From the NCBI RefSeq assembly GCF_054482525.1, contig NZ_CM137006.1: a stretch of 64,000 nucleotides of DNA; one strand, 5' to 3'. A model generated the notes under the pieces. It had not been told where the DNA came from, made no database searches, and saw only the letters and a program-made list of their open reading frames with translations. The position numbers and the translations under genes were made by a program. Of the stretch, positions 30,421 to 51,877 are shown in pieces (position 1 is the stretch's first letter; each line of letters opens with the position of its first letter).

Positions 30421-30443
30421 TGGTTATGTTATAACATAACAGG
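30421..30443. promoter_or_regulatory. Zur box upstream of ykgM-ykgO
   Basis: TGGTTATGTTATAACATAACAGG contains the palindrome ATGTTATAACAT, abutting the ykgM RBS. Confidence 0.65.
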
Positions 30444-30451
30444 TAAAAATG

Positions 30452-30715: not shown

Positions 30716-30855
30716 TGAAAGTCCTTAACTCTCTGCGTACCGCAAAAGAACGCCATCCAGACTGTCAGATTGTGAAGCGAAAAGGACGGCTATATGTGAT
30801 TTGTAAATCTAATCCACGTTTTAAGGCCGTTCAGGGTCGTAAGAAAAAACGTTGA
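30715..30855 (+). CDS. ykgO: Ribosomal protein L36 paralog (zinc-independent)
   Basis: 46-aa [49 protein letters not shown]; ATGA overlap with the ykgM stop. Confidence 0.88.
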
Positions 30856-30905
30856 TTCAAAATTCGACGGATTAATGATATTTGTCTGATTAATAATCAG
30901 ACCTG

Positions 30906-30946
30906 ATTAATGTTGGTGTATTTATTACACCAGCATTAATTTTCTT
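30906..30946 (+). terminator. Rho-independent terminator of ykgM-ykgO
   Basis: 15-bp stem ATTAATGTTGGTGTA / TACACCAGCATTAAT followed by TTTCTT. Confidence 0.65.
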
Positions 30947-31869
30947 GGGGATGTATCTTCCTGTTCATTTAAGGTCAACTGCCTGACGTTTCTCTCCGAA
31001 TATTCCATTATATTAATGTTGACTTGTTAACCAGGTGCGCCCTGTATGCTGGCATCAACTCTCTTTTAGACTGAACACGCCACTCAGTTTCCTCCCTTTG
31101 CGACGCAGCCTGCATTTACACTCAAACGGTTAAGATGATAAATGTGGTAAATCTGTTGGTACTGACATAAAAACGTTTACGTCACAGGAACGGCCTGATC
31201 CACCGGTAACCCCATCGCCGACGTTCGAGTGCCAGTTAGAGTAACGCGCACAGATGACTGAATGCAGTGCCCTGGCAAAGAGGCCATCGTTCCTGTGACA
31301 ACTGGCAGTCTTCGTTTAACTTCACTTAATTTGGCTCTTAGGGGGCTTACCGGACAGATGACGTACTTACACCTGTTTAATTTTTCATCACTTATTGGGA
31401 TGAACACCCATAACCATTTTGTGCGGCATGTTAATCCATTAAAACACCTTACTGATTGGCAAATCATCTTTAATTATGACTCATGATAGTTTTATATTCT
31501 ATTTCTTATCATTTAAACTTGTTTTTTTACTAGTCCATCACACAACACATTAAGACTATTCCTAACACCTCAGGGCAAAGTTCCTGGCTAATATAAAATG
31601 CAAGTAAGAATTGAACGTTATATTGCCAATAACCTTATGAAACTGAATGTCTTTTTCTTCTTATCAAAAAAGCAATATTTTCATTTTTTGTAAATATTGA
31701 CTTAACCATGGAATTCCTTTTCTGTTCACATATTGACACTCATCAGGAAAAAAACATAAATTTAAACCTAATCGAAATAATTAAAACTTAATCTCGTTTA
31801 ACCTATATTGATATGTGCTACGTATCTTATTTACTTCCGATTTACTAAAGAAACTGAATGTACCTGTAA

Positions 31870-32481
<612 letters not shown>

Positions 32482-32555
32482 ACTCCAGGCAAGTTAGTTT
32501 TAAAAAATGACTCACAGGGACATCACGTCCTCAATTCAACTCGGGAAGAAATGCA

Positions 32556-33143
32556 ATGAAAAAAAAGGTTCTGGCAATAGCTCTGGTAACGGTGTTTACC
32601 GGCATGGGTGTGGCGCAGGCTGCTGACGTAACAGCTCAGGCTGTAGCGACCTGGTCGGCAACAGCCAAAAAAGACACCACCAGTAAACTGGTTGTGACGC
32701 CACTCGGTAGCCTGGCGTTCCAGTATGCCGAAGGCATTAAAGGTTTTAACTCACAGAAAGGTCTATTTGACGTAGCTATCGAGGGTGACTCAACGGCTAC
32801 CGCCTTTAAACTGACCTCACGTCTTATAACCAACACCTTAACCCAGTTGGATACCTCAGGTTCCACACTGAATGTGGGCGTGGATTATAACGGCGCGGCA
32901 GTCGAAAAAACTGGCGATACCGTGATGATCGATACCGCCAACGGCGTACTGGGCGGCAACCTTAGCCCACTGGCTAACGGTTACAATGCCAGCAATCGTA
33001 CCACCGCACAGGATGGTTTCACTTTCTCCATCATCAGCGGCACCACCAATGGTACCACCGCAGTAACCGATTACAGCACTCTACCGGAAGGCATCTGGAG
33101 CGGCGACGTTAGCGTACAGTTCGACGCTACCTGGACCAGTTAA
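32556..33143 (+). CDS. ecpA: E. coli common pilus major subunit EcpA (MatB)
   Basis: 195 aa with a signal peptide [22 protein letters not shown]. Confidence 0.93.
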
Positions 33144-33199
33144 TTTCTCTGATGTACCAGCAGGGGTACCCCCCTGCTTTATTCCTGGACGGAATTGTT

Positions 33200-33868
33200 A
33201 TGAAAAAGCACCTTCTGCCTCTCACTCTGCTGTTTTCCGGAATATCTCCGGCCCAGGCGCTGGATGTCGGCGATATATCATCGTTTATGAACAGTGACAG
33301 CAGCACGCTGAGCAAAACGATCCAAAACAGTACCGACAGTGGCCGCCTCATCAATATCCGTCTCGAACGGCTCTCTTCACCGCTTGACGACGGGCAGGTT
33401 ATCGCAATGGACAAGCCGGATGAGTTGCTACTCACTCCCGCCAGCTTGCTGCTACCCGCCCAAGCCAGCGAAGTGATCCGCTTCTTCTATAAGGGACCAG
33501 CAGATGAAAAAGAGCGCTACTACCGCATTGTCTGGTTTGATCAGGCCCTCAGTGATGCGCAGCGCGATAATGCCAACCGTAGCGCTGTGGCCACTGCTTC
33601 CGCCCGCATCGGCACCATTCTGGTCGTCGCACCCCGCCAGGCGAACTACCACTTTCAGTACGCCAACGGCTCCCTGACAAATACAGGAAATGCGACGCTG
33701 CGGATCCTCGCCTACGGCCCCTGCCTGAAAGCCGCCAATGGTAAGGAGTGTAAAGAGAATTACTACCTGATGCCGGGCAAGTCGCGTCGTTTTACCCGCG
33801 TGGACACGGCGGATAACAAAGGACGGGTTGCACTTTGGCAGGGTGATAAGTTCATTCCCGTGAAATAG
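33200..33868 (+). CDS. ecpB: ECP chaperone EcpB
   Basis: 222 aa from [12 protein letters not shown]; signal peptide. Confidence 0.9.
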
Positions 33869-33893
33869 ATAGCTGTGCAGATGGATAACGACA

Positions 33894-36419
33894 ATGCCTT
33901 TACGACGGTTCTCCCCAGGACTGAAAGCCCAGTTTGCCTTCGGCATGGTCTTTTTGTTCGTTCAGCCCGATGCCAGCGCTGCTGACATAAGTGCGCAGCA
34001 AATAGGTGGGGTGATTATTCCGCAGGCCTTCAGTCAGGCGCTTCAGGACGGCATGAGCGTCCCGCTCTATATTCATCTTGCCGGTAGCCAGGGTCGCCAG
34101 GACGATCAGCGAATCGGCAGCGCTTTTATCTGGCTGGATGATGGACAGCTACGCATCCGGAAAATACAGCTTGAAGAGAGTGAAGATAACGCCAGTGTCA
34201 GCGAACAAACTCGACAACAGCTGATGGCTCTGGCGAACGCCCCGTTCAATGAGGCCCTTACCATCCCCCTGACTGACAACGCGCAGCTGGATCTCAGCTT
34301 GCGCCAACTGCTGCTGCAGCTGGTGGTCAAGCGCGAAGCGCTGGGCACTGTACTACGCTCACGTAGCGAAGACATCGGGCAGTCCAGTGTTAACGCCCTC
34401 AGCAGTAATCTGAGCTATAACTTCGGCATCTATAACAACCAGTTGCGTAACGGCGGGAGCAACACATCCAGCTATCTGTCGCTGAATAACGTTACAGCAC
34501 TGCGCGAACATCATGTGGTGCTCGACGGCTCGCTGTATGGGATCGGTAGCGGTCAACAGGACAGTGAATTATATAAAGCGATGTATGAACGCGATTTTGC
34601 TGGTCACCGATTTGCCGGTGGAATGCTCGACACCTGGAACTTGCAGTCCTTAGGGCCGATGACCGCCATTTCAGCAGGGAAGATTTACGGCCTTTCCTGG
34701 GGAAACCAGGCCAGCTCCACCATCTTCGACAGCAGCCAGTCAGCCACGCCAGTGATCGCCTTTTTACCGGCGGCGGGCGAAGTACATCTCACCCGTGATG
34801 GGCGGCTACTAAGCGTTCAGAACTTCACCATGGGCAATCATGAAGTGGATACCCGGGGTCTACCGTACGGTATTTACGATGTGGAAGTTGAGGTGATCGT
34901 TAACGGTCGCGTGATCAGCAAACGCACTCAACGGGTCAATAAGCTGTTTAGCCGGGGGCGCGGCGTCGGTGCACCACTGGCGTGGCAGATATGGGGTGGT
35001 AGCTTTCATATGGATCGCTGGTCGGAAAACGGGAAAAAGACGCGACCAGCTAAAGAGAGTTGGCTGGCAGGTGCCTCGACCTCCGGCTCACTGAGTACGC
35101 TTAGCTGGGCGGCAACGGGATATGGATACGATAATCAGGCGGTGGGTGAAACCCGTCTGACGCTGCCGCTTGGGGGAGCGATCAACGTTAACCTGCAAAA
35201 TATGCTGGCCAGTGACAGCTCATGGAGCAACATCGCCAGCATCAGCGCCACTCTACCGGGAGGCTTTAGTTCGCTGTGGGTTAACCAGGAAAAAACCCGC
35301 ATTGGCAATCAATTGCGACGTAGCGATGCCGACAACCGTGCAATCGGCGGCACACTCAACCTGAACTCACTGTGGTCGAAGCTGGGCACATTCAGCATCA
35401 GCTACAATGATGACCGCCGTTACAACAGCCATTATTACACGGCAGATTACTATCAAAATGTCTACAGCGGTCCCTTTGGTTCGCTTGGCCTGCGGGCCGG
35501 TATTCAGCGCTATAACAACGGCGACAGCAGCGCCAATACAGGGAAATATATCGCTCTCGATCTCTCGCTACCACTGGGCAACTGGTTTAGCGCAGGGATG
35601 ACCCATCAAAACGGCTACACCATGGCAAACCTGTCAGCACGCAAACAGTTTGATGAAGGAACCATTCGCACTGTTGGTGCCAATCTGTCACGAGCCATCT
35701 CCGGCGATACCGGTGATGACAAAACCCTCAGCGGTGGGGCGTATGCACAGTTCGACGCTCGTTACGCCAGCGGAACGCTGAACGTCAATAGCGCGGCGGA
35801 CGGCTACATCAATACCAATTTGACCGCCAACGGCAGCGTCGGCTGGCAAGGTAAAAACATCGCTGCCAGCGGGCGGACCGATGGCAATGCTGGGGTGATA
35901 TTCGACACTGGCCTGGAGAACGATGGTCAGATCAGCGCCAAAATCAACGGGCGGATTTTCCCGCTTAACGGCAAGCGTAACTATCTCCCGCTCTCTCCCT
36001 ATGGAAGATATGAGGTGGAGTTACAGAACAGCAAAAACTCACTCGACAGTTACGATATCGTCAGCGGTCGCAAAAGCCATCTGACTCTCTATCCAGGCAA
36101 TGTCGCTGTCATTGAGCCAGAGGTGAAGCAGATGGTTACCGTCTCCGGTCGTATCCGTGCGGAAGACGGCACACTGCTGGCTAACGCACGGATTAACAAC
36201 CATATCGGCCGAACCCGAACCGATGAAAACGGCGAGTTTGTCATGGACGTGGACAAGAAATACCCCACTATCGATTTTCGCTACAGTGGCAATAAAACCT
36301 GCGAAGTGGCACTGGAACTCAACCAGGCGCGCGGTGCCGTCTGGGTCGGTGATGTGGTCTGCAGCGGCCTCTCATCGTGGGCGGCGGTGACGCAGACAGG
36401 AGAAGAGAATGAGAGTTAA
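33894..36419 (+). CDS. ecpC: ECP usher EcpC
   Basis: 841-aa outer-membrane usher-like protein. Confidence 0.93.
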
Positions 36420-38052
36420 CCTACTGATAGCGATGATAATCTTTGCGCTAATCTGGCCTGCAACCGCGCTCAGAGCGGCAGTGAGCAAAACAACCTGGGC
36501 GGATGCTCCGGCACGCGAGTTTGTGTTTGTCGAAAACAACTCAGACGACAACTTTTTCGTCACGCCTGGCGGGGCGCTGGATCCGCGCCTGACCGGTGCC
36601 AACCGCTGGACCGGTTTAAAATACAATGGTTCAGGAACCATCTATCAGCAAAGTCTCGGCTACATTGATAACGGTTACAACACCGGCCTTTATACCAACT
36701 GGAAGTTTGATATGTGGCTGGAAAATTCACCAGTTTCATCTCCTTTAACTGGCTTGCGCTGCATCAACTGGTACGCAGGGTGTAATATGACCACCAGTCT
36801 TATCCTGCCGCAAACCACCGACGCCAGTGGATTTTATGGCGCGACGGTGACCAGCGGCGGCGCGAAGTGGATGCACGGCATGTTGTCAGACGCGTTTTAC
36901 CAGTATCTGCAACAAATGCCCGTCGGCAGCAGCTTTACAATGACCATCAATGCCTGCCAGACCTCTGTGAACTATGACGCCAGCAGCGGCGCACGCTGTA
37001 AGGATCAGGCCTCCGGCAACTGGTATGTTCGCAACGTCACCCATACGAAAGCAGCAAATCTGCGGTTGATAAATACCCACTCGCTGGCGGAAGTATTTAT
37101 CAACAGCGACGGAGTACCGACTCTGGGCGAAGGGAACGCCGACTGCCGGACGCAAACCATCGGCAGCCGTTCAGGATTAAGTTGTAAGATGGTTAACTAT
37201 ACCCTGCAAACAAACGGACTCAGCAACACCTCAATCCATATATTCCCGGCGATCGCCAACTCGTCGTTAGCCTCGGCCGTCGGGGCGTACGATATGCAGT
37301 TCAGTCTGAATGGCAGTTCATGGAAACCGGTGAGCAATACCGCCTATTACTACACCTTCAACGAGATGAAGAGCGCAGACTCGATCTATGTTTTCTTCTC
37401 GAGCAACTTCTTTAAGCAGATGGTGAACCTCGGGATCAGCGATATCAACACCAAAGATCTATTCAACTTTCGCTTTCAGAACACCACATCACCGGAGTCT
37501 GGCTGGTATGAATTTTCTACCTCCAACACGCTGATTATCAAACCCCGTGATTTCAGCATCAGTATTATCTCCGATGAATATACTCAGACACCGTCGCGGG
37601 AGGGATATGTCGGCAGCGGCGAGTCGGCACTCGATTTCGGCTATATCGTAACCACCAGCGGTAAAACAGCTGCCGACGAAGTGCTGATCAAGGTGACCGG
37701 ACCCGCGCAGGTGATTGGCGGACGCTCCTATTGTGTCTTCAGCTCCGATGACGGTAAGGCGAAAGTACCGTTCCCGGCGACGCTTTCCTTTATTACCCGC
37801 AACGGAGCTACAAAAACCTACGATGCCGGGTGCGATGATAGCTGGCGGGATATGACCGATGCGCTGTGGCTGACTACACCGTGGACTGATATCTCTGGCG
37901 AAGTGGGGCAGATGGATAAGACCACTGTCAAATTTTCGATTCCAATGGATAACGCCATTTCGCTGCGTACGGTAGATGATAACGGCTGGTTTGGCGAAGT
38001 CAGCGCTTCAGGAGAGATTCATGTTCAGGCGACGTGGCGTAACATTAACTAA
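36409..38052 (+). CDS. ecpD: ECP tip adhesin EcpD
   Basis: 547 aa; overlaps the ecpC stop. Confidence 0.92.
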
Positions 38053-38731
38053 GGCCCTGCTGACAGCGGTCTGTATGCTGGCGGCACCTTTGACACAGGC
38101 GATTTCGGTCGGCAATCTGACATTTTCGCTGCCGTCCGAGACTGACTTTGTCAGCAAACGTGTAGTGAATAACAACAAAAGCGCACGGATATACCGTATT
38201 GCCATCAGTGCTATTGATAGCCCGGGCAGCAGTGAATTGCGCACCCGACCGGTGGATGGTGAACTACTTTTCGCCCCCCGCCAGCTGGCGTTGCAGGCTG
38301 GTGAGAGCGAGTATTTTAAATTTTACTATCATGGTCCACAGGATAACCGCGAGCGCTACTACCGGGTCTCATTTCGCGAGGTCCCCACTCGCAACCAGAC
38401 AAGACGCAGCCCAACCGGCGGCGAGGTCAGCACGGAGCCGGTGGTGGTGATGGATACCATTCTGGTAGTACGACCACGTCAGGTTCAGTTTAAATGGTCC
38501 TTCGACCAGGTGACAGGAACGGTAAGTAACACCGGCAACACGTGGTTTAAGCTACTGATTAAACCAGGATGTGATTCGACCGAAGAGGAAGGCGACGCCT
38601 GGTATCTACGTCCGGGAGACGTTGTTCATCAGCCTGAGTTACGTCAGCCGGGGAATCATTATCTGGTCTATAACGACAAATTCATTAAGATTAGCGATTC
38701 CTGTCCGGCTAAGCCCCCTTCGGCGGACTAA
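38021..38731 (+). CDS. ecpE: ECP chaperone EcpE
   Basis: 236 aa from [14 protein letters not shown]; paralog of EcpB. Confidence 0.9.
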
Positions 38732-39043
38732 GACTTATCCATCGGTCGAGGGAAGAACTCCACCTCAGAGACTCAAAAATCGTTTAAATAATGTGGAAGC
38801 GATCGTCAATGTCACCTGTAACGATGGGCTTTCTCATATGTACACCATAGTGTTCAGGAGACACGGAAAGGTACCAGGCAGCCTGCTAACGAGTGGTTTA
38901 TTCACGAATTAGTACGTAAAATCGGTAACGGCTGGAAATCATTCAATACTCACACTATCGAAAGTTCCCCAGCCAACCGCGGTACGTTCTTACATACGAT
39001 GTACCGCTGTTCTCTTTACGATTTAAAGCTGTACTGGTGAATT

Positions 39044-39373
39044 ATGAGCAATCTGAATCCATGCATGACGTGTGGTGCCTGTTGTGCATTTTTCCGCGTC
39101 TCTTTTTACTGGGCCGAAGCCGACGATGCTGGCGGTACCATTCCCGCCAGGCTCACGGAACAAATATCCCCTTTTCACCGATGCATGAGCGGTACCAATC
39201 AGAAAAACCCCCGATGTATTGCCCTTGCAGGAACACCGGGCAAAAATGCCTGCTGCACGATATATAAAAATCGATCGTCCACGTGCAGAGAATTCGCCAT
39301 GTCTGGTGAGAACGGAGTCGTCAATGAGGCTTGCAATCGTGCAAGAGCTAAATACGGGCTGACACCGTTATAA
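39044..39373 (+). CDS. ykgJ: YkgJ, Cys-rich putative zinc/iron-chelating protein (UPF0153)
   Basis: 109 aa, [17 protein letters not shown]... Confidence 0.85.
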
Positions 39374-39395
39374 ATATGCAATAATTAATTGCACT

Positions 39396-39429
39396 GCCCC
39401 GCCAGCTATAATCGCGGGGCTTCGTTTTT
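39396..39429 (+). terminator. Rho-independent terminator after ykgJ
   Basis: GCCCCGC / GCGGGGC stem followed by TTCGTTTTT. Confidence 0.65.
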
Positions 39430-39575
39430 CAGGGATAACAAAACCCGAAACTTCTTCCATCTGCCAGCAACAATGCCTCTTCCTCTATAGTGTTCTCCGG
39501 ATCTACAGCATCCTGAAGTAGCGCGATGTACTCACTAGCTATCTGTTTCAGAAAGTAAAAAGCAATGTTTTTAAC

Positions 39576-39612
39576 CTATAAAAATGGCGCTGTATTTGCG
39601 CCATTTTTATTA
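39576..39612. terminator. Bidirectional terminator between ykgJ and yagU
   Basis: AAAAATGGCGC-TGTATTT-GCGCCATTTTT perfect palindrome with A/T runs. Confidence 0.65.
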
Positions 39613-39621
39613 TTCAATGCA

Positions 39622-40236
39622 TTATCTGTTTGAGCCTAAAGGGATCTCAGGGTCTGGCTCATGAGTAATTCTGTTTCGTAAATCTCTGCGAATAATTTCA
39701 ATGGACCAGAACCAGACTAAATGTCCAAAAATTTCAGAAACATTCTCATACCACGGGAGATCAAACAGAGGTGGCGTCAGTCCCATGAGAGGGAATGAAA
39801 TCATATGAACAAAAAGTTGGGCTAAAGCACCTGCCAGTAAGCCCTGCCAGAGTTTAATTTTTGGAAATACTTCAGCGACCACACAATAACCGACAGCAAA
39901 CACTATCGAAAAGATAATGTGCGTAACACCAACCCAGTTAAAGACATGCCCGGCAAAGGTATAAACAGCCGCATTGGGATCTGTCAGTCCCAACCAATCC
40001 CGAAGAAAAATGTACGGAGGATTGAGAAAGTTACGGGAGCAATCAATTTGGCCTGCAGCCCTGATTAATGATTCCGGGCCACACGCTGCATTAAACATAT
40101 CCACCGGGCTACGTGGCGGCAATGGAACTTCAGCCCCCCACTTCACAAATGCGGAAACAACGCCAGCAATCAGCCCAATGAATGCAGCAAGACCATAACG
40201 TCTGCGGTTCGGTGGAGTTTGTTCAAATATATTCAT
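39622..40236 (-). CDS. yagU: Inner-membrane protein YagU (DUF1440)
   Basis: 204-aa hydrophobic protein. Confidence 0.88.
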
Positions 40237-40642
40237 ATCTACCCTGCTTGTACCATTATGTTATACACCTCTTCAGGAGTATTCATAAAACAAGACAAAT
40301 GTAAAGAACTGTATTGTTTTGTATAACAAAATAGTTTCCTAATCGCCAATGAATATAAGCACCATCATTTCTCCCTATTTTTATGTTAGAAGTGACAAAG
40401 ATTTGTAGGGTGATGCAGAGCTGACAATCACAGGTTTCCTTATCGGTTTTTGCATCGCACAACTAAAGCAATAAACGAGCTCCCGTCATCGGCGAATATG
40501 AATTAATTAGCCGGGCTCATAGCTGCATTCGCGTTTTAAGAATAATCCTCCTGCTCTCACCGACTATGCTTAACATTTAAAAAAGCATCAGCACTCTCGC
40601 AACGCTCTCTTATTTTCCCCTTTAGAATACCGGAGGCCTGGT

Positions 40643-41332
40643 ATGAGCAACCAAGGCGAATACCCCGAAGATAATCGGGTTGGGAAGCACGAGCCGCACG
40701 ATTTTAGTTTGACCCGTCGCGATCTGATTAAAGTCAGCGCCGCAACGGCGGCGACCGCCGTGGTTTATCCTCATTCTACGCTTGCAGCAAGCGTTCCGGC
40801 AGCTACACCCGCGCCCGAGATAATGCCCCTGACACTTAAGGTGAACGGCAAAACCGAGCAGTTGGACGTTGATACCCGAACCACGCTACTGGACGCTTTG
40901 CGTGAAAATCTGCATCTGATCGGTACCAAGAAAGGTTGCGATCACGGGCAGTGCGGAGCCTGTACCGTGCTGGTCAATGGTCGCAGGCTTAATGCCTGCC
41001 TGACGCTTGCAGTCATGCATCAGGGGGCAGAGATCACCACCATTGAAGGCCTGGGTTCACCAGAGAATCTTCACCCCATGCAGGCGGCCTTTATCAAGCA
41101 TGATGGCTTCCAGTGCGGCTACTGCACCTCCGGGCAAATTTGCTCATCAGTTGCGGTGCTAAAAGAGATTCAGGACGGCATTCCCAGTCACGTCACGGTC
41201 GATTTGGTTTCCCCTCCAGAAAGAACGGCCGATGAGATCCGTGAACGTATGAGCGGCAACATCTGTCGCTGTGGTGCATACGCTAACATCCTTGCCGCCA
41301 TTGAAGATGCTGCGGGGGAGATAAAATCATGA
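40643..41332 (+). CDS. paoA: Periplasmic aldehyde oxidoreductase 2Fe-2S subunit PaoA (Tat signal)
   Basis: 229 aa; twin-arginine motif TRRDLIK; two [2Fe-2S] Cys clusters. Confidence 0.93.
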
Positions 41333-42285
41333 AGGCGTTTACCTATGAACGAGTGAACACCCCGGCCGAGGCGGCACTTAGCGCTCAGCGCGTACCCGGC
41401 GCAAAATTTATCGCTGGCGGGACCAATCTGCTGGACCTGATGAAGCTGGAAATTGAAACGCCAACCCACCTTATCGATGTGAACGGGCTCGGGCTCGATA
41501 AGATTGAAGTGATCGACGCGGGTGGGCTGCGCATCGGCGCACTGGTACGGAACACCGACCTGGCAGCTCACGAGCGCGTGCGTCGTGATTACGCGGTACT
41601 CTCCCGCGCCCTGCTCGCTGGCGCGTCTGGTCAGTTACGCAATCAGGCAACCACCGCAGGTAATCTGCTCCAGCGCACGCGCTGCCCCTATTTTTACGAC
41701 ACCAATCAGCCCTGCAATAAGCGCCTGCCCGGGAGCGGCTGCGCGGCACTTGAAGGCTTTAGCCGTCAGCACGCGGTGGTAGGCGTAAGCGAAGCCTGCA
41801 TTGCCACCCATCCGAGCGATATGGCGGTCGCAATGCGGTTGCTGGATGCGGTGGTGGAAACCATCACGCCGGAGGGAAAGACTCGCAGTATCACACTGGC
41901 TGATTTTTATCACCCTCCGGGAAAAACGCCGCACATTGAAACCGACCTGCTTCCCGGTGAGCTTATCGTTGCGGTGACGTTACCTCCGCCGCTCGGCGGA
42001 AAACATATTTACCGTAAGGTGCGCGATCGCGCCTCCTACGCCTTTGCCCTGGTATCGGTCGCAGCGATTATTCAGCCTGACGGCAGCGGGCGCGTCGCGC
42101 TGGGCGGAGTAGCACATAAGCCCTGGCGCATTGAGGCTGCGGATGCTCAGCTATCCCAGGGGGCGCAGGCCGTATATGACGCGCTGTTCGCCAGCGCCCA
42201 TCCCACCGCTGAAAACACCTTTAAACTCCTGTTGGCGAAGCGAACGCTTGCCTCCGTACTGGCTGAAGCGAGGGCACAGGCATGA
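41329..42285 (+). CDS. paoB: Aldehyde oxidoreductase FAD-binding subunit PaoB
   Basis: 318 aa; ATGA overlap with paoA. Confidence 0.93.
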
Positions 42286-44480
42286 AATTTGATAAACCCG
42301 CAGGGGAAAACCCGATCGATCAGCTGAAGGTTGTCGGTCGTCCCCATGACCGCATCGACGGACCGCTGAAAACTACCGGCACGGCACGCTACGCCTACGA
42401 ATGGTATGAAGAAGCTCCCAACGCCGCCTATGGCTATATCGTCGGTTCCGCCATTGCCAAAGGACGCCTCACCGCCCTCGATACGGACGCCGCGCAAAAA
42501 GCGCCGGGCGTACTGGCTGTCATTACCGCCAGTAACGCCGGGGCACTCGGCAAAGGCGACAAAAACACCGCCAGCCTGTTAGGCGGCCCCACTATTGAGC
42601 ACTATCATCAGGCCATTGCGCTGGTAGTGGCTGAGACCTTCGAACAGGCGCGAGCGGCGGCCTCGCTGGTGCAGGCGCACTATCGCCGTAATAAAGGAGC
42701 TTACTCCCTGGCGGACGAAAAACAGGCCGTCAGTCAGCCGCCGGAAGACACGCCCGATAAAAACGTTGGTGACTTTGACGGGGCTTTCACCTCCGCTGCG
42801 GTGAAGATTGATGCTACCTACACGACCCCGGACCAGAGCCATATGGCGATGGAGCCGCATGCCTCGATGGCCGTCTGGGATGGAAATAAGCTTACCCTCT
42901 GGACCTCAAATCAGATGATTGACTGGTGCCGCACCGATCTGGCAAAAACGCTGAAAGTGCCCGTGGAGAATGTGCGTATTATCTCCCCGTATATCGGTGG
43001 AGGGTTTGGCAGCAAGCTGTTCCTGAGAAGCGATGCGCTGCTGGCGGCCCTCGCCGCCCGTGCGGTGAAACGTCCGGTTAAAGTGATGCTCCCCCGCCCC
43101 ACTATTCCCAATAACACCACGCACCGCCCCGCCACCCTTCAGCACTTGCGTATCGGTGCCGACCAGAGCGGGAAAATCACTGCTATCTCACATGAAAGCT
43201 GGTCCGGAAACCTGCCCGGCGGCACGCCGGAAACGGCGGTACAGCAAAGCGAATTTCTTTACGCAGGGGCGAATCGTCATATCGGCCTGCGGCTCGCCAC
43301 GCTTGATTTGCCGGAAGGGAACGCCATGCGTGCGCCCGGCGAAGCCCCCGGTCTGATGGCGCTCGAAATCGCGATCGATGAACTGGCGGAAAAAGCGGGC
43401 ATCGATCCCGTCGAGTTTCGCATCCTGAATGACACTCAGGTTGACCCCGCCGACCCGACGCGCCGCTTCTCTCGCCGTCAGCTTATCGAGTGCTTGCGCA
43501 CCGGAGCGGATAAATTTGGCTGGAAGCAGCGCAACGCCACACCCGGACAGGTACGCGACGGAGAGTGGCTAGTCGGCCACGGCGTCGCGGCGGGCTTTCG
43601 CAATAATCTGCTGGAAAAATCGGGGGCTCGGGTTCACCTCGAACCAAACGGCACCGTTACCGTGGAAACGGACATGACCGACATTGGCACCGGCAGCTAC
43701 ACCATTCTGGCCCAGACGGCAGCGGAAATGCTTGGCGTACCGCTGGAGCAGGTTGCGGTTCACCTCGGCGATTCCAGTTTCCCGGTTTCTGCGGGGTCTG
43801 GTGGACAATGGGGCGCAAATACCTCCACCTCCGGCATTTACGCCGCCTGTGTGAAGCTTCGCGAAATGATTGCCTCGGCAGTCGGGTTTGATCCTGAGCA
43901 GTCGCAGTTTGCCGACGGCAAGATTACCAACGGTACCCGAAGCGCCATGCTACATGAGGCCACCGCAGGCGGCAGACTGACAGCGGAAGAGAGCATTGAA
44001 TTCGGAACACTGAGCAAGGAGTACCAGCAGTCGACCTTTGCCGGGCATTTTGTGGAGGTCGGCGTGCATAGCGCGACGGGAGAAGTTCGGGTCCGGCGTA
44101 TGCTCGCTGTGTGTGCTGCAGGACGCATCCTGAATCCGAAAACTGCACGCAGCCAGGTCATTGGCGCAATGACTATGGGCATGGGTGCGGCACTGATGGA
44201 GGAGCTGGCGGTGGATAACCGTTTGGGCTACTTCGTTAATCACGATATGGCGGGGTATGAGGTGCCGGTCCATGCGGATATCCCAAAACAGGAGGTGATT
44301 TTCCTGGATGATACCGACCCCATCTCCTCCCCGATGAAGGCCAAAGGTGTCGGTGAGCTGGGCCTGTGCGGCGTGAGCGCGGCTATCGCCAACGCGGTGT
44401 ATAACGCCACCGGTATTCGGGTACGGGATTATCCCATCACTCTGGATAAGCTGCTCCATAAACTGCCGGATGTGGTTTAA
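42282..44480 (+). CDS. paoC: Aldehyde oxidoreductase molybdopterin-binding subunit PaoC
   Basis: 732 aa xanthine-dehydrogenase-family Mo subunit; ATGA overlap with paoB. Confidence 0.93.
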
Positions 44481-44489
44481 GGAGGAACA

Positions 44490-45446
44490 ATGTCATACTC
44501 GCTTTTTGACAAAGACGAGCACTGGCATAAGCCAGAGCAGGCGTTTCTCACCGATGACCACCGGACCATTCTGCGCTTCGCCGTAGAGGCGCTAATGTCC
44601 GGTAAAGGAGCGGTGCTGGTGACGCTGGTGGAGATACGCGGCGGCGCGGCGCGCCCGCTCGGGGCTCAGATGGTGGTGCGCGAAGATGGTCGTTACTGCG
44701 GTTTTGTCTCTGGCGGCTGCGTGGAGGCCGCTGCCGCTTTTGAAGCGCTGGAGATGATGGGCTCAGGCCGCGATCGCGAAATTCGCTATGGCGAAGGTTC
44801 GCCGTGGTTTGACATCGTTCTGCCCTGCGGCGGTGGGATCACGCTGACGCTCCATAAACTACGCTCGGCACAGCCTCTGCTCGCCGTGCTGAACCGCCTG
44901 GAACAGAGAAAACCGGCGGGTCTGCGCTACGATCCGCAAGCACAATCGTTGGTGTGCCTGCCCACGCAAACCCGGACGGGCTGGAATCTCAATGGCTTTG
45001 AGGTGGGGTTCAGGCCATGCGTCAGGCTGATGATTTACGGACGTTCTCTTGAGGCGCAGGCAACCGCGAGTCTTGCAGCAGCCACAGGCTATGACAGCCA
45101 TATCTTCGATCTTTTTCCGGCCTCAGCCAGCGCTCAGATCGATACCGATACGGCGGTCATTTTGCTGTGCCATGATCTCAACCGGGAGCTGCCAGTGTTG
45201 CAGGCCGCGCGAGAAGCAAAACCCTTTTATCTCGGCGCATTGGGCAGCTATCGAACCCACACTTTACGTCTGCAAAAGCTCCACGAGCTGGGATGGTCCA
45301 GGGAGGAGACAGCGCAAATCCGGGCACCCGTCGGGATATTCCCCAAAGCCCGGGATGCGCATACTCTGGCACTCTCCGTGCTGGCAGAAGTCGCCTCTGT
45401 ACGTCTCCATCAGGAGGAGGATTCATGCCTGCCCCCGTCGTCCTGA
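44490..45446 (+). CDS. paoD: XdhC-like Moco insertion chaperone PaoD
   Basis: 318 aa. Confidence 0.9.
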   Translation: MSYSLFDKDEHWHKPEQAFLTDDHRTILRFAVEALMSGKGAVLVTLVEIRGGAARPLGAQMVVREDGRYCGFVSGGCVEAAAAFEALEMMGSGRDREIRYGEGSPWFDIVLPCGGGITLTLHKLRSAQPLLAVLNRLEQRKPAGLRYDPQAQSLVCLPTQTRTGWNLNGFEVGFRPCVRLMIYGRSLEAQATASLAAATGYDSHIFDLFPASASAQIDTDTAVILLCHDLNRELPVLQAAREAKPFYLGALGSYRTHTLRLQKLHELGWSREETAQIRAPVGIFPKARDAHTLALSVLAEVASVRLHQEEDSCLPPSS

Positions 45447-45500
45447 TCCTTGCGGCCGGGCGTGGAGAGCGCTTTCTCGCCTCCGGGGGAAATACCCATA
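45425..45500 (+). pseudogene. N-terminal stub of a MobA/MocA-like molybdenum-cofactor nucleotidyltransferase gene
   Basis: ATG overlapping the paoD end encodes MPAPVVLILAAGRGERFLASGG (nucleotidyltransferase P-loop-like), then similarity is lost in an AT-rich junction. Confidence 0.5.
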
Positions 45501-45625
45501 AATTAAGAGAAAAATCTGCAGTAGCCGTTTTAGAAAATCACCTAAATCGTTTAAAAGAGCACCCAACCCATAGTGGGCGCTCATCGCCTTGTGTAACTTA
45601 TTCAGCAACGCGCGCCCTCGCCGGA

Positions 45626-46819
45626 CTAAAGCGCACCGGCCTTCTGGCGTGCGGTAACAAAGGTCAGTACGCCAGCGCAAAGGAGCAGCACGCTACTCAT
45701 AGCAAACGTGCTCTGCCAGCCAAGGCGGTCAAATACGATGCCTCCTGCTGTTGATCCAAGGGCGATGGAGAGCTGAATCACCGCGACCATGAGCCCGCCT
45801 CCGGCTTCGGCGTTGTCAGGCAACGTACGCGCAATCCATGTCCACCATCCGGTTGGCGCGGCGGTGGCCAGCATGCCCCAGAGTCCTAACAGCAGCGAGA
45901 CCGTCCAGACGTGATGCCCGGTCAGCATCAGACCGATAGCAATGACGGCCATCAGTCCGGGTATGGCCATCAGCGTGGGGTAGAATTTTCTGTTGAGAAA
46001 TGCCGAAACAACCAGCGTGCCAATAAAACCGGCCACGCCGATAATCAGCAAAATCAACGACAAGCCTAAGGAATTAACCCGTGTCACCGACTCCAGAAAC
46101 GGGCGCACATAGGTGAATAGTGCAAACTGCCCCATGAAAAACAGGCAGCAGGCTATCATGCCGACCACAACCATGCGGCGGCTAAATAAGCGGAATACCG
46201 CGCCACATGAAGTGTGGCTTTTATTCGCATCCATGCTTGGCAGGCTGATGCACTGCCAGATAAAGGCGACAACCGCGATGGGCACCAGGCACAAGAAAGC
46301 GCCTCGCCATCCGACCGTAGCCCCCAGATAGCTTCCCAGCGGTGCGGCCACGACCGTCGCCAGCGCATTACCGGCGTTGAAAATTGCCAGCGCACGCGTG
46401 ACCTGATGCTGCGGCACCAGACGAATCGCCGTTGCCGCTGACATCGACCAGAATCCGCCAATAGCCACACCAATCATCGCACGACCGACCATATACATCA
46501 GATAACTGGAAGCCAGCGCAATAATAAGCCCCGATACGGCCATCAGAACCGTCATCCCCAGCAGCAGGAACTTACGATTCATCTTTCCAGCTAGCGTTGA
46601 AAGCGTCAGGCTGGTCAGAACCGCCAGCGCGCCGGAGATAGCAATCCCCTGCCCTGCCAGCCCCTCCGTCACGCCTAAATCGCGGGTAATCGGCGTGAGC
46701 AGGCTGACGGGCATAAATTCAGAAGCAATCAGCACAAACACGCACAGGGTCATGGCAAAAATACCGCCCCAGTATGCGCGCTGATGATGAGGTGATAGTG
46801 TTTGGCTTAGTGTCGACAT
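45626..46819 (-). CDS. MFS transporter (12-TM, efflux-type)
   Basis: 397-aa hydrophobic protein with MFS-like repeats. Confidence 0.85.
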   Translation of the reverse strand: MSTLSQTLSPHHQRAYWGGIFAMTLCVFVLIASEFMPVSLLTPITRDLGVTEGLAGQGIAISGALAVLTSLTLSTLAGKMNRKFLLLGMTVLMAVSGLIIALASSYLMYMVGRAMIGVAIGGFWSMSAATAIRLVPQHQVTRALAIFNAGNALATVVAAPLGSYLGATVGWRGAFLCLVPIAVVAFIWQCISLPSMDANKSHTSCGAVFRLFSRRMVVVGMIACCLFFMGQFALFTYVRPFLESVTRVNSLGLSLILLIIGVAGFIGTLVVSAFLNRKFYPTLMAIPGLMAVIAIGLMLTGHHVWTVSLLLGLWGMLATAAPTGWWTWIARTLPDNAEAGGGLMVAVIQLSIALGSTAGGIVFDRLGWQSTFAMSSVLLLCAGVLTFVTARQKAGAL

Positions 46820-46894
46820 AGTGAAATTTCACAAAGATCAGGATAAAAGCCACCAGCCTATGGCCGGTGGCTTTGCATCAATTCAGGAGAGGTT

Positions 46895-48031
46895 TTATTT
46901 CAGTTTGGTCTGGAAAAATTGTTCGAACTTCGCGAAAGGTATTTTTCCGGCCACGTTATCGTACAGGTCCACGTGATTTGCCCCTGGTACCACCACCAGC
47001 TCTTTGTCGTTACTGCCAACCACCTTGTAAGCATCTTCAGCAAAATAGCGTGAATGCGCTTTCTCACCGGTCACAATCAGCGTCGGGATGGTGATTTCAC
47101 TGGCGTAGCTCAACAGCGGCATATTCATAAATGACAGCGGCATCGTTGCCGTCCACGCCCCGGTAGAGTTAACGGAACGTTCGTGGAAGCCGCGCGGCAT
47201 GCGATAGTAGTCAAAGAACTCTTTCAGTACCGGATGAGGATTTGCCGGCAGCGTTTCTGGCAGAATGCGCTCGCCCGCACTGACCTTGCCGTTGCTGTCG
47301 ACATTAATATCATGACCACCGTGAGCGAACGTTCCGCTCTGCGCATCCTTCCAGCGCTGTTCATTCAGATATTGCAGAACGGCACGACGGTCGGCGGTAG
47401 AATAACGGTCTTTGCCATCCCCCACACCATGACCCATCGCCCGGCTCATGTCATACATCACGCTGGTAGCTACCGCTTTAACGCGGGTATCCATCGCCAC
47501 GTCGTTCAGCGCCATGCCGCCCCAGCCACAAATACCGAGCAGCCCGATACGGTTGCGATCTACCTCTTTTTGCAGCCCTAAGAAATCCACCGCCGCGCTG
47601 AAATCTTCAGTGTTGATATCCGGTGAGGCGACGTTTCGCGGATAGCCGCCGCTTTCCCCGGTGTAAGAAGGATCGAACGCCAGGGTAACAAACCCTCGTT
47701 CCGCCAGCGTCTGCGCATACAAGCCGCTGGATTGCTCTTTCACCGCGCCAAATGGCCCACTGACCGCAATCGCCGCCAGCTTGCGATCGCCACGGTCTTT
47801 AGGCAGGTAAAGATCGCCCACTAAGGTGATGCCATATCGGTTCGGGAACGAGACTTTACGGTGATCGACTTTCTGGCTCTCGGCGAACGTTTTATCCCAT
47901 TTATCTGCCATGGACACAGGGGCATTAGGATTGGTTGAATCAGCATAACTCATTGTCGTGACTCCACTTAATGATGCGAAAAGCAGCATGGTCGGCATCG
48001 CGGTTTTTAGCGTGCGGGTGAAGGCTTTCAT
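46895..48031 (-). CDS. Secreted alpha/beta-fold hydrolase (GxCxG), paralog of the 27219-28139 gene
   Basis: GICGWGGMALN elbow; N-terminal signal peptide ...LLFASLSGVTTMSYA; start may be 48052. Confidence 0.75.
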   Translation of the reverse strand: MKAFTRTLKTAMPTMLLFASLSGVTTMSYADSTNPNAPVSMADKWDKTFAESQKVDHRKVSFPNRYGITLVGDLYLPKDRGDRKLAAIAVSGPFGAVKEQSSGLYAQTLAERGFVTLAFDPSYTGESGGYPRNVASPDINTEDFSAAVDFLGLQKEVDRNRIGLLGICGWGGMALNDVAMDTRVKAVATSVMYDMSRAMGHGVGDGKDRYSTADRRAVLQYLNEQRWKDAQSGTFAHGGHDINVDSNGKVSAGERILPETLPANPHPVLKEFFDYYRMPRGFHERSVNSTGAWTATMPLSFMNMPLLSYASEITIPTLIVTGEKAHSRYFAEDAYKVVGSNDKELVVVPGANHVDLYDNVAGKIPFAKFEQFFQTKLK

Positions 48032-48218
48032 AAAAATCCCCATAAAAAACAACAGAGAGATACAGGTTTCCGACGGACAACGCTGCGGTGCTTTACTTTG
48101 ATGGGGTCATTATAGTGAGCAGAATTAGTGCTGATTAGGGGGCGATTAATGCTAAGATTAATACCATATTGTTATAAATTAATGCGGAGATTGCCGGCAT
48201 GAAGGGGGGGATGTTTCA

Positions 48219-49103
48219 ATGGCGAAAAGGGAGAACTACAACGAGCTGTACCTGTTTATGCAGGTGGTGCGGGAAGGCAGCTTTACCGCAGCGGCTCAGC
48301 GGCTGGGTCTTGCTCAGTCAGGAGTCAGCCGTTCTGTTCGCGAGCTTGAAGAAAGGCTGGGCGTCCAGCTGCTAGTGCGCACCACGCGTAAACTGTCGCT
48401 GACACAAGCAGGCGAGCAGCTCTACCAGAAGACGGCATCTGGATTTGAAATGTTAGATCTTGGGCTTGCCACGCTGGCGCACTATCGAGAGACGCCCTCC
48501 GGCACGGTGCGTATCAATGCCAGCCAGCACGCGATTGATAAATGCCTGCTGCCAAAGCTGGCGGTATTTAAACAGAGATATCCTGATATCCGGCTTGAAC
48601 TGATAAATGAGAGCCGGTTCGTCGATATCATCGAGGAAAGATTCGATGCAGGTGTCCGCCTGGGGCCTGAAGTCGGCCAGGGTATGGTCGCGGTACGCAT
48701 CACGCCCGATATGGAGATGGCAATTGTGGGGACTCCGGAACATTTTCGTCGTTATGGTTTTCCGCAAACCCCGGCGGATTTAAAGGCGCATCCCTGTATC
48801 GCCTATCAGTTTGCCGACGGCAGCGTATACCAGTGGGAACTCAATCAGGATGATAAAAAAATCACTCATCGCCCTGAAGGGCAATGGGCCCTATCCGACA
48901 GCTATATGGAAGCAGAAGCCGCCCGGCTGGGCCTCGGATTGGCCTATGTTCCTGTTGAACTGGTCGCGGATGATTTAGAACACGGTAACCTTATCAGGGT
49001 GTTGCAGCGTTACAGCCTGCGAATGGAGGGATTGTTTCTCTATTACCCTCATCGCAACGTCTCCCCCGCTCTGCGGATGGTCATTGATACATTGAAAATC
49101 TGA
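48219..49103 (+). CDS. LysR-family transcriptional regulator
   Basis: 294 aa; HTH VVREGSFTAAAQRLGLAQSGVSRSVRELEE; divergent from the hydrolase gene. Confidence 0.85.
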   Translation: MAKRENYNELYLFMQVVREGSFTAAAQRLGLAQSGVSRSVRELEERLGVQLLVRTTRKLSLTQAGEQLYQKTASGFEMLDLGLATLAHYRETPSGTVRINASQHAIDKCLLPKLAVFKQRYPDIRLELINESRFVDIIEERFDAGVRLGPEVGQGMVAVRITPDMEMAIVGTPEHFRRYGFPQTPADLKAHPCIAYQFADGSVYQWELNQDDKKITHRPEGQWALSDSYMEAEAARLGLGLAYVPVELVADDLEHGNLIRVLQRYSLRMEGLFLYYPHRNVSPALRMVIDTLKI

Positions 49104-49316
49104 ACGTTAACAACGACCGACTCTTTACTGTGCAAAATTGTGTCAGGTAGTCCCTCTGCGTTCAATTCCAGGGTCTGTACACCCTGCTTTGAGCGAGAAA
49201 GAGGGGACTATCCAGCAATGGAGATCACCCAAAAGAAAAAACCACCTGGCTCCCTCGACAACCTTCATCCAGGCATTTAGCCTCAATCAACATTTTTATA
49301 TCTGTCAGGTTACTTC

Positions 49317-49590
49317 ATGATGAAAACTGATCATTATCGTTGTTTTTGTTGCAATAGTAGAATACGCGTATTTATTCCTCCATCTCTATTAATAACGGCA
49401 ATAAACTGTTCACTTCACTGATATTTAAAATATGTATCCTTTTCAAGCTGTTCAGCGGCGTAAGAAAAAGCATTAATTATGAATTCGACGATTTAACCAT
49501 TTCAGTCTGATTGGTAATCATCTGTGATTAATGCTGGTCTATTGATTACGCCAGCATTAACCGCTTAGGGATGTATTCTTCCTGTTCATA
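49317..49590 (+). repeat. Degenerate second copy of the ykgR-(ykgM-ykgO) locus: frameshifted ykgR paralog fused to the 3' end of an rpmJ2-like gene plus its terminator
   Basis: 49327-49441 matches 30040-30150 (ykgR 3' part and downstream) and 49441-49590 matches 30824-30966 (ykgO 3' end and terminator), about 85-90 percent identity by eye, same orientation. Confidence 0.7.
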
Positions 49591-49793
49591 TAGCCCTCGA
49601 AAAAGAGAGAAAATAAAACTGTGTCCAATATTAATTTACCACTCCAGACCGAAGCATCGGTGGGATTAGCAGGACGACTGGTACAGAAGGATGGTATAGC
49701 GTCATTTGTCGGGCATTCCATTGCCATAATAATGACAATTTTGAATCAATAGACATGCTTCTTGATCATGTCTTAAAAATTAGACCATGAGCC

Positions 49794-50024
49794 TTACGAA
49801 GCATCATTTTTACTGACTGGTATTAACTTTGCTATCATATAAACTCTATTCTTAAAAAACGCGCCCAGAATTTTATATGATTTTCCTTGTTTTGCTGCCT
49901 GTAAAGAAATTTCTTTTTCAGTGCTGTCGATGGTTGAACCGACGGCAGTAATCGTTTTGGCGACGCTACTGAAGGATATTAAAGACAGTGTAACCACAAC
50001 AATTAAAGAATAGATAATATTCAT
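49794..50024 (-). CDS. Small periplasmic DUF1471 (YhcN/BhsA-family) protein
   Basis: Signal peptide MNIIYSLIVVVTLSLISFSSVA and C-terminal ...GKSYKILGAFFKNRVYMIAKLI pattern. Confidence 0.5.
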   Translation of the reverse strand: MNIIYSLIVVVTLSLISFSSVAKTITAVGSTIDSTEKEISLQAAKQGKSYKILGAFFKNRVYMIAKLIPVSKNDAS

Positions 50025-50239
50025 GCTAATTCTCCTGACAATTGAGAGGATGAGTTTTATATACAAAGGCATTAAATATGAGTCATGTTTACTCCCTGTG
50101 AAAATAATCTTACTGTAATTAAACCTTCATCTCCTTCGGAGTGAGCAATGCATAATATAATGCATCTTGCTATTCAAAACAGTGGATATAAATTTTCCTT
50201 CCGACCTATTTAATAAAACGTGAATATAAAAGTTATTCT

Positions 50240-50794: not shown

Positions 50795-50962
50795 GCATTT
50801 TCAGAAATGGGAGGCTGGGAGTCTATCGAAATGGTTCGTCGATATGCTCACCTCGCGCCTAATCACCTTACCGAACACGCACGGCAAATAGACTCAGTCC
50901 TGAACCCATCGGTCCCAAATTTGTCCCAGTCAAAAAAAAAGGAAGGTACTAATTATGTGTAA
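50795..50962 (+). pseudogene. 3' fragment of a tyrosine recombinase (phage/P4-type integrase) gene
   Basis: Encodes ...[24 protein letters not shown], the integrase C-terminal motif carrying the catalytic Tyr; no upstream integrase body. Confidence 0.6.
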
Positions 50963-51174
50963 CTTATTGATTTAAATGGTGCGATAATAGGAATATAACA
51001 CACCACATATATTCTTTGATAAATATGACTATTTTCTTGTTTCATCTTTATAAATGCCCCCTTTTGTGCCCCCACCTTGTTTTTCATGCGACTCGATGAG
51101 ACTTTCATCGAGTCGTTAATCTCATCAAATTCTTCACGTATCGTGGAAACCTTCGCAGATCTCCATCCCCTCAC
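50953..51174 (-). CDS. Hypothetical small protein coupled to the toxin gene
   Basis: 73-aa ORF whose ATG overlaps the toxin stop (ATGA). Confidence 0.3.
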
Positions 51175-51539
51175 AGCCGTGATCGGCTAAGAACAATATT
51201 ACTTACCTCCCTGTAAGAACACCGGCTCATCAGCCCGCACGCTTTCCTGGCTTGAAGAATGTCTGTCGCAGTCAAATATGGTGCTTGTACCTGAGAGGTA
51301 AATCCATTGCGATCAATACGAACTAACTCATATTTCTCTACCAGAAAGTTAACGGCATTAGCCAGAGTGATACCGGCATCGATATGCTCCTTTATAACGG
51401 TTTCATCGCTAAAAGGTGTGTCGCTTAGCATTAGGCCATAGTGCTGCTCAAGCAGACGAGTAAGTAACATTTGCCAGATTGCAACGGGCGACAGACAGGG
51501 CTTCGCCGCCCGCGAAATTGTAGCAGGTAGATTTTTCAT
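51171..51539 (-). CDS. CbtA/YeeV/YkfI-family toxin (cytoskeleton-targeting type IV TA toxin)
   Basis: [36 protein letters not shown]... is collinear with CbtA; ATGA overlap with the antitoxin stop. Confidence 0.85.
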
Positions 51540-51877
51540 GTTTGCTCTCGTGAAATTTGTTTGCGCTGAGGGGGATAAATGGCGATGTATACGTAGCCGC
51601 AACTACCAAGGGTATCGGCTTCGCAGGTGAAACCGTTGTGGTACAGGGTGACACAGTGGGCATGGCGGGGATTCATTTCACCAGTGGTCAGCATCGATTC
51701 CATCTGACTGATAAAATGTGGAAATACGACATCCAACTTCAGGCTTTCGGCATCACTAAACTTACCGGTGATACTTGCCCGGTCAGCCAGATAGTGCAGC
51801 CGGTTGCCCTCCTGCACCAGACGTGCTCCCAGGCACGGCGTGATATCCCGCTGCAGGCCCCATGTGGGGTTGCTCAT
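51536..51877 (-). CDS. CbeA/YeeU/YfjZ-family antitoxin
   Basis: ...[20 protein letters not shown]...[10 protein letters not shown] matches the YeeU family. Confidence 0.85.

Follow-up and report, generated by a model that had tools for sequence, protein, structure and literature searches.

In Escherichia coli K-12 the gene for the small membrane protein YkgR (Pfam PF28062) is followed by ykgM and ykgO, which encode Zur-repressed, zinc-independent paralogues of ribosomal proteins L31 and L36 (L31B and L36B), ykgO being the type B L36 gene (Pfam PF00444). We analysed a 64,000-nucleotide stretch of contig NZ_CM137006.1 (assembly GCF_054482525.1), hereafter 'the window', which carries an intact ykgR-ykgM-ykgO locus and, further along the same strand, a 270-base relic of it. 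The relic has the same gene order and orientation as the K-12 locus, to which it is 91% identical over the 3' part of ykgR plus 48 nt and 75–77% identical over the end of ykgO and its terminator; unlike the K-12 locus, it has no ykgR start, no ykgM promoter region and no ykgM, and only 11 codons of ykgO. As set out below, this relic is orthologous to the only ykgR locus of those Escherichia lineages that lack a block of common-pilus (ecp) and aldehyde-oxidoreductase (pao) genes, the ecp-pao block, and it is old, not a recent duplication within this genome.

When the intact locus (29900–31100) was searched against the whole window with blastn, the relic was recovered as two matches, both collinear with the intact locus and in direct orientation. 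We call the ykgR-derived repeat R and the ykgO-tail repeat T, R1 and T1 belonging to the intact copy and R2 and T2 to the relic. R2 (49324–49440) matches R1 (30032–30148) at 106 of 117 positions without a gap (90.6%, E = 7e-40), and T2 (49440–49589) matches T1 (30819–30968) at 117 of 151 positions with two gaps (77.5%, E = 7e-20), the two copies being offset by 19,292 bp. These are the sole non-trivial repeats of such size in the window, save for one near-perfect 38-bp palindrome (94.7%) at 9196–9236, which is its only other self-match. A sequence-only reading of the window, made without database searches, had proposed a degenerate partial copy of ykgR and the ykgO tail at this place, and its own suggested blastn check, of 29.9–31.0 kb against 49.2–49.7 kb, bears this out: the similarity consists of collinear matches to ykgR and ykgO, not of AT-rich noise.

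The window is E. coli DNA, and gene annotation was taken from the E. coli PCN033 record NZ_CP006632.1, to which the window is 99.98% identical over 29150–50992. In the intact copy, all of it on the plus strand, ykgR occupies 29999–30100 (33 codons and a stop; translation MKENKVQQISHKLINIVVFIAIVEYAYLFLHFY), ykgM 30452–30715 and ykgO 30715–30855. R1 comprises ykgR codons 12–33, the stop and 48 nt downstream, while T1 (30819–30971 with its terminator) comprises the last 12 codons of ykgO and an intrinsic terminator, a stem of 16–20 bp followed by UUUUCUU (fold z = -3.85). Between R1 and T1 lie 670 bp (30149–30818) that hold a spacer, the ykgM promoter region, ykgM and ykgO codons 1–35, and for which blastn within the window found no counterpart at copy 2; the L31B/L36B coding sequences are missing there, just as the sequence-only reading had it.

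The relic itself, likewise on the plus strand, is best read as a 5'-truncated ykgR, a 670-bp internal deletion and the decayed last 12 codons of ykgO with their hairpin. It begins with 22 C-terminal ykgR codons and a stop (49324–49392; KLIIIVVFVAIVEYAYLFLHLY), which differ from the YkgR of K-12 and of the single-locus genomes described below at two of 22 residues (N to I, F to L), so that homology to YkgR is clear. A copy of the 48 nt 3' of ykgR follows with three mismatches (49393–49440), then the deletion junction, placed by alignment at 49440–49441, where the 670 bp of copy 1 are gone, then the ykgO tail remnant FQAVQRRKKKH and a stop (49441–49476), and finally a remnant of the ykgO 3' region (49477–49592) in which a hairpin is kept at 49528–49560. 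The tail and hairpin had already been recognized from the sequence alone. The same reading had also inferred an internal deletion of about 28 bp that frameshifted the ykgR-like frame, and this we do not find: the 117-bp match is gapless and no homology is left upstream of 49324, so that the lesion is a 5' truncation. The remnant is accordingly not a complete 33-codon ykgR with a start codon and its own upstream region. Homology begins at about codon 11–12, the ykgR frame has no start codon and is preceded immediately by two in-frame TGA codons, and to the left of 49324 no similarity was detected to the first 11 ykgR codons or to the promoter (a local alignment score of 17, which 220 of 500 shuffles equalled or exceeded, their mean being 16.9). 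An ATGATG at 49317, which reads ATTATG in O157, is out of the ykgR frame and appears coincidental.

At its other end the relic likewise falls short of a gene. A full-length ykgO has 46 codons and the C-terminal motif FKAVQG; 11 codons and a stop are left here, and the motif has become FQAVQR. Among the 120 listed YkgO relatives FKAVQG is almost always found and the FQAVQRR tail never, so that the relic tail has decayed. The candidate of an intact YkgO carrying the relic's tail was rejected: a chimeric query returned no FQAVQRR protein, and P0022, which ends in RKKKH, is borne on an integrative and conjugative element (ICE) with unrelated flanks. With the promoter region, ykgM and most of ykgO absent, there is no second Zur-regulated ykgM-ykgO operon at this place. 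What is present is collinear partial homology, disabling lesions and relaxed constraint, as in a dispersed segmental duplication or pseudogene relic.

The relic gains its meaning from genomes with a single ykgR locus. These were reached by following divergent homologues of its neighbour, an Escherichia-restricted 92-aa gene (49794–50072, minus strand) with weak BhsA/YdgH-like similarity, which served as the anchor for finding orthologous loci. In L008, 6EVA, wlxctx60, GF4-3, L004–L007 and the metagenome contig L054, the scar lies 3' of a full-length ykgR, and the locus runs from fdeC and a flavin-oxidoreductase fragment through ykgR, which has its own upstream region, to the junction, T2, the 92-aa gene, a short-chain dehydrogenase/reductase (SDR) gene, a LysR gene and the thrW side, with no ykgM-ykgO, ecp or pao. 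Compared with this form, ordinary E. coli has exactly 19,292 bp extra, bracketed by the repeat and made up of one 117-bp ykgR segment, the spacer, ykgM-ykgO and its tail, ecpRABCDE, ykgJ, yagU, paoABCD, three genes and 220 nt. The relic is orthologous to the sole ykgR locus of these block-less Escherichia lineages, and the limits of the repeat match those of a presence/absence polymorphism that the ecp-pao block shows in nature. That direct copies some 19 kb apart bracket the ecp-pao genes had been noted in the sequence-only reading and holds, although its list of bracketed genes was short of ykgM-ykgO, a ykgL-like pseudogene, the major facilitator superfamily (MFS) transporter, the hydrolase and LysR.

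The same genomes speak to the age of the relic. L004–L007 and L054 are 13–14% divergent in the flank from T2 to the SDR gene, and they have the deletion junction of the relic; because the junction is common to lineages this far apart, the relic is ancient rather than a recent paralogous duplication in this genome. The earlier description as a paralogous copy therefore keeps its homology and loses its implied recency. At the junction, nine more nucleotides (TCTCCCTGC / TTTTTCTGC) are found in L004, 6EVA, GF4-3 and some two-copy metagenome contigs (L043, L055, L059), and in GF4-3 (L011, 12273–12302) a 9-bp unit derived from the ykgO tail, TTCAAGCTG, stands at the junction in three tandem copies, a small slippage polymorphism. 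The single-locus form is rare: a chimeric query for it was covered over at least 80% of its length in three of 5426 complete genomes (6EVA, wlxctx60 and GF4-3). One further carrier, L008 (GCA_048109445.1), is labelled E. fergusonii. Over 6.7 kb (crl-phoE-proBA-LysR-SDR) its identity to E. coli O145 is 96.9%, far in excess of the average nucleotide identity of 89% reported for E. fergusonii and E. coli, so that L008 is either mislabelled or carries an introgressed segment.

The two-copy form is much more widespread. A T2 tail of at least 90% identity is present in about 622 of the 5426 complete E. coli genomes (approximately 11%), and 589 complete E. coli genomes hold at least 80% of window positions 49150–49750. 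Carriers include E. coli C, O157:H7, O145:H28 and PCN033, and the relic was probably present before these lineages diverged and later lost in many. A search of plasmids returned only chromosome-like or F-prime records. Among 18 metagenome contigs with T2, the LysR end is joined to R2 in 15, a single-locus form, divergent, is seen in one, and the remaining two do not extend far enough to show the arrangement; in none of the 18 does ykgM-ykgO lie between R2 and T2. No L36 gene is annotated at the relic position among the E. coli rows listed for the tail query, and the survey that the sequence-only reading had called for, of an intact second L31/L36 paralogue locus at this position, came back empty in the Escherichia and other enterobacterial sequences covered.

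How did the two copies come to flank the block? The two parts of the repeat have diverged to different degrees. Copies 1 and 2 are 90–92% identical in R (117 bp) and 73–79% in T (~150 bp). Against the E. coli single-locus form, copy 1 is 95–97% identical in R and 73–79% in T, and copy 2 is 93–95% and 92–94%, respectively. E. coli and L004/L054 share 83–89% in R and 88–89% in T (of the T2 type), and E. albertii compared with any of these 77–86% and 67–71%. In orthologous comparisons between E. coli and L004, R and T are equally diverged, both 87–89% identical; the R1/R2 split is therefore much younger than that of T1/T2, unless gene conversion has homogenized R, and the far greater divergence of T1/T2 means that the tail of the intact cassette was not the recent source of the relic tail. 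As for individual sites, six are fixed between R1 and R2, and at four of them the state of one copy occurs in none of L004, L054 and E. albertii; at two further R sites R2 and the E. coli single-locus R hold a non-outgroup state in common, and one site is ambiguous. R1 and R2 seem, on this count, to have begun diverging after the L004 split, whereas the deletion junction predates it. The single-locus R of the three E. coli genomes and L008 resembles copy 2 at the three sites on the left and copy 1 at the three on the right, whereas deletion between the present-day repeats, and likewise a Campbell-type crossover within R, would call for the reverse pattern. Block-bearing strains differ among themselves by 0.7–4.2% in the left flank (fdeC), and the single-locus strains stand 4.3–6.4% away from them. 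Finally, E. albertii is without ecp and pao (PMC4700944 Table S6).

The order of events that we favour is that the ecp-pao block and an intact cassette were inserted into a locus that was already scarred, a proposal to which we give an even chance. The scarred single locus would be the earlier state. DNA with an intact cassette and the ecp-pao genes would later have joined in, on the left by homologous exchange in the upstream flank or in ykgR, and on the right by an illegitimate join that cut the resident ykgR at codon 11. The 3' part of the resident ykgR and the old scar would thereby have been left stranded downstream as copy 2. This order is favoured because of the divergence of R and T, the pattern of sites, the left-flank distances, the lack of ecp and pao in E. 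albertii and the other context of its cassette, and the single-locus R, which is not a copy-1-left, copy-2-right hybrid.

Several points weigh against insertion into a scarred locus. In a tree of the right flank (T2 to SDR, 1037 columns) E. coli strains with one locus and with two copies are intermixed: 92% of bootstrap replicates place GF4-3 with the O145/O157 cluster, only 4% recover the two-copy form as monophyletic, and repeated loss of the block or recombination of the flanks is therefore needed. E. marmotae has E. coli-type YkgM and YkgJ, and the intact cassette and part of the block may thus predate E. coli proper. Gene conversion between the ykgR segments could mimic a young duplication. 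Insertion in one step from a close relative leaves the excess divergence of T1/T2 over R unexplained, and the site counts are tiny, six fixed differences in 117 bp being too few for a firm direction.

The opposite order we consider possible, though distinctly less probable than an even chance: the two-copy state would be older in the E. coli part of the genus, and RecA-type recombination between the 117-bp ykgR segments would have deleted the 19.3-kb block, with occasional gene conversion keeping R alike. The single-locus structure is exactly the predicted product of such a deletion, an easily repeatable event that would suit the interleaved right-flank tree; the perfect block of 35 bp between the O145 repeats is enough for homologous recombination, and the E. 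coli-type YkgM and YkgJ of E. marmotae are in keeping with an old two-copy state. However, the single-locus ykgR has the pattern opposite to that of a deletion hybrid and is without the derived states of both copies, and the form occurs in just three of 5426 complete genomes, which are divergent (88.7–91.3% identical to the chimeric query). Continuous conversion of R, but never of T, would also be required. In this window the longest perfect identity between the repeats is 16 bp, for which reason they are predicted to be poor recombination substrates. The earlier suggestion that the repeats could support deletion or duplication of the block is supported, then, by the existence of block-less genomes, but not by the 16-bp identity here or by a single-locus ykgR that is no deletion hybrid.

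Improbable, to our mind, is a further route in which a circle with a partial ykgR, ykgM-ykgO, ecp-pao and the 220 nt was integrated by a Campbell-type crossover in the 117-bp ykgR segment of the scarred locus. It accounts for the bounding direct repeats and, through the joint of the circle, for the abrupt start of copy 2 at about codon 11, and copies of ykgM/ykgO do ride mobile elements in E. coli (an ICE and a urease island, described below). Yet it predicts a resident segment that is copy-1-like on the left and copy-2-like on the right, whereas the opposite is seen; no integrase, att-like sequences or terminal repeats were found at the ends of the cassette or block; and the donor would have needed a ykgR segment near-identical to the resident one together with a tail 23% different.

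The relic itself is non-functional and inert today. This follows from its lack of a start, the stops upstream, its annotation as a pseudogene by the Prokaryotic Genome Annotation Pipeline (PGAP), the mutated FKAVQG motif, the non-synonymous changes, the loss of the U-tract and the absence of an Rfam match. The ykgR remnant has six changes specific to its lineage, every one of them non-synonymous. The hairpin at 49528–49560 is kept (fold z = -3.28), but the U-tract of copy 1 is replaced by CCGCUUAGGG, and a terminator scan called no rho-independent terminator there; Rfam 15 gave no match at E up to 1 in 49317–49592 or in 29500–31500. At most, the relic lies in untranslated DNA where the LysR and 92-aa genes converge. 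We hold it very unlikely that the region functions as it stands, be it as a 34-codon open reading frame (ORF; 49317–49421), a small RNA, or a terminator or 3' untranslated region (UTR) element of the convergent 92-aa gene. In favour of a function, lineages 13% divergent still have the hairpin, whose fold is better than those of shuffled sequences (z = -3.3 to -4.1), and with a minus-strand terminator-like site at 49256–49235 the 3' UTR of the 92-aa gene would take in the relic; but the 34-codon ORF has no ATG at that position in O157 and is not in the ykgR frame, no Rfam family matches, the U-tract is gone, and the region has been deleted without replacement in most E. coli, K-12 included. The minus-strand site, a hairpin with a T-run at 49235–49256, is an observation in its own right: it stands in the 220-nt spacer between the LysR stop and the relic, and could terminate 92-aa gene transcripts that have run through the relic.

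The last alternatives, chance low-complexity similarity in what is an AT-rich region or a recent strain-specific duplication, can be dismissed, since collinear same-strand matches with E-values of 7e-40 and 7e-20 argue against the former, divergence of 9% and 23% excludes the latter, and the structure recurs in hundreds of genomes and in other lineages.

Beyond the relic, the cassette is found at several chromosomal positions. In E. albertii an intact ykgR-ykgM-ykgO-tail unit has espG and an autotransporter gene on one side and the csiD-lhgO-gabDTP operon on the other. It is homologous to E. coli copy 1 over 29884–30170 and 30345–30975, with a right limit that falls within ~5 bp of the ends of T1 and T2; its ykgR-ykgM spacer is unrelated to the E. 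coli spacer at 30171–30344. Neither direct nor inverted terminal repeats were found at the ends of the cassette in either species. The deep lineages or positions of the cassette number at least three: beside ecp in E. coli, as the scar beside the 92-aa gene, and beside csiD-gab in E. albertii. We tentatively suggest that ykgR-ykgM-ykgO-tail (~1.1 kb) may be a discrete 'zinc-sparing ribosomal protein' cassette that has been relocated repeatedly in Escherichia, and that the ecp and Pao genes may have been acquired with a fresh cassette at the scar of an older one; this is a conjecture that we rate clearly below an even chance.

Copies of the ribosomal protein genes also occur without R and T. 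In 17 of the 5426 complete genomes ykgM-ykgO is cargo near TraG/TraU of an ICE, beside siderophore-type non-ribosomal peptide synthetase genes, with ~80% nucleotide identity to the chromosomal pair (~92% amino-acid identity for YkgM). A lone ykgM paralogue (81% nucleotide, 93% amino-acid identity) lies just 3' of ureDABCEFG in an island rich in insertion sequences (6001–6333 of a locus on a 5.7-Mb E. coli contig), and is the likely source of the second ykgM-query match in O157:H7 genomes, a match that is not at the relic locus. Lastly, a scan of genome contigs with a ykgR pattern of 35 specified bases turned up two contigs of 403 and 264 bp, in assemblies of Sulfoacidibacillus thermotolerans and Alkalicoccobacillus porphyridii, that match E. 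coli ykgR with its flanks at 97.7% identity; they are almost certainly E. coli contamination of those assemblies.

The bracketed block (30972–49323) contains, in the PCN033 annotation, a ykgL-like pseudogene, ecpRABCDE, ykgJ, yagU, paoABCD, genes for an MFS transporter, an alpha/beta hydrolase and a LysR regulator (48219–49103), and the 220 nt of unique spacer. It does not have the make-up of an att-type genomic island: the repeats of 117 and 151 bp are 91% and 77% identical rather than short and near-identical, no integrase is annotated within 30972–49323, and the block is not adjacent to thrW, the 92-aa, SDR and LysR genes lying between. In the window the 92-aa gene is followed on its far side by a truncated SDR gene (cut at ~50793), an integrase fragment (50804–50962) and the start of a match to tRNA-Thr (thrW). 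To the right of 50992 the window departs from PCN033 and enters a different island at the thrW site; this island has CP4-type ORFs, such as an antitoxin-like 143-aa ORF (51171–51602, minus strand). K-12 is without the relic: a deletion there joins the end of paoD to the middle of a second LysR gene, yagP (K-12 19204–19800 against window 45417–45501), and has taken out the MFS, hydrolase and first LysR genes, the relic, and the 92-aa and SDR genes. An identification of the LysR gene at 48219–49103 with K-12 yagP was considered and rejected, as yagP corresponds to the C-terminal portion of the other LysR gene, the second one, which adjoins thrW.

Part of the relic has been annotated before. PGAP labels 49324–49392 a pseudogene, 'small membrane protein YkgR, incomplete, missing N-terminus', in PCN033, O157:H7 and O145 (for example PPECC33_RS29500 and BFL17_RS32255), and in E. 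coli C the same 69 nt are merely an incomplete hypothetical protein. The ykgR half is thus already known, whereas no annotation marks the adjoining end of ykgO, the junction or the connection with the ecp-pao block. A full-text search for ykgR, ykgM and ykgO matched 40 papers, and the 15 of these that were listed gave no description of the relic, their titles and abstracts being on other topics; ecp, pao and ykg go unmentioned in papers on Escherichia clade I and E. marmotae, and the paper on GF4-3 assigns that strain no phylogroup. In O157:H7 PNUSAE146131 (locus 1–1635) ISEc8, of the IS66 family, lies immediately upstream of ykgM and no ykgR is annotated there, and PGAP therefore gives the name ykgR to the truncated relic downstream.

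What the analysis offers is, first, a correction, in that the 'YkgR pseudogene' of PGAP is one half of the relic of a ykgR-ykgM-ykgO cassette. Second, the 117-bp repeat and the common deletion junction make a precise landmark for the presence/absence polymorphism of the ecp-pao block, which includes a widely used E. coli colonization factor. Third, the chromosomal site of the Zur-regulated L31B/L36B pair differs among enterobacteria, and Escherichia has either lost and regained the pair or moved it, which bears on how adaptation to zinc starvation is distributed. No new mechanism or kind of element is revealed: the relic is an ordinary pseudogene scar with modest evolutionary value as a marker.

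Set beside known systems, the relic keeps homology to the YkgR gene, but a start codon and upstream region belong to the YkgR gene only, and of the type B L36 gene it holds no more than the C-terminal end with a changed motif. The single locus of block-less Escherichia has the same junction, tail and downstream genes, although ykgR is full length with its promoter there and ecp-pao is absent. The E. albertii cassette has the whole unit, as does E. coli copy 1, but in another chromosomal context, while in Citrobacter, Salmonella and Klebsiella the same gene pair, without ykgR or tail sequence, occupies another position again, between ylaB and ylaC (near maa, hha, tomB and acrB). As to mechanism, the long (117 bp), diverged repeat is unlike att sites or the target duplications of transposons. 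It resembles direct-repeat-bounded indel polymorphisms in that the indel is bounded by a repeat, the mechanism here being an inferred one, and it resembles homology-facilitated illegitimate recombination in having a single abrupt non-homologous joint (49323/49324) beside a stretch of homology.

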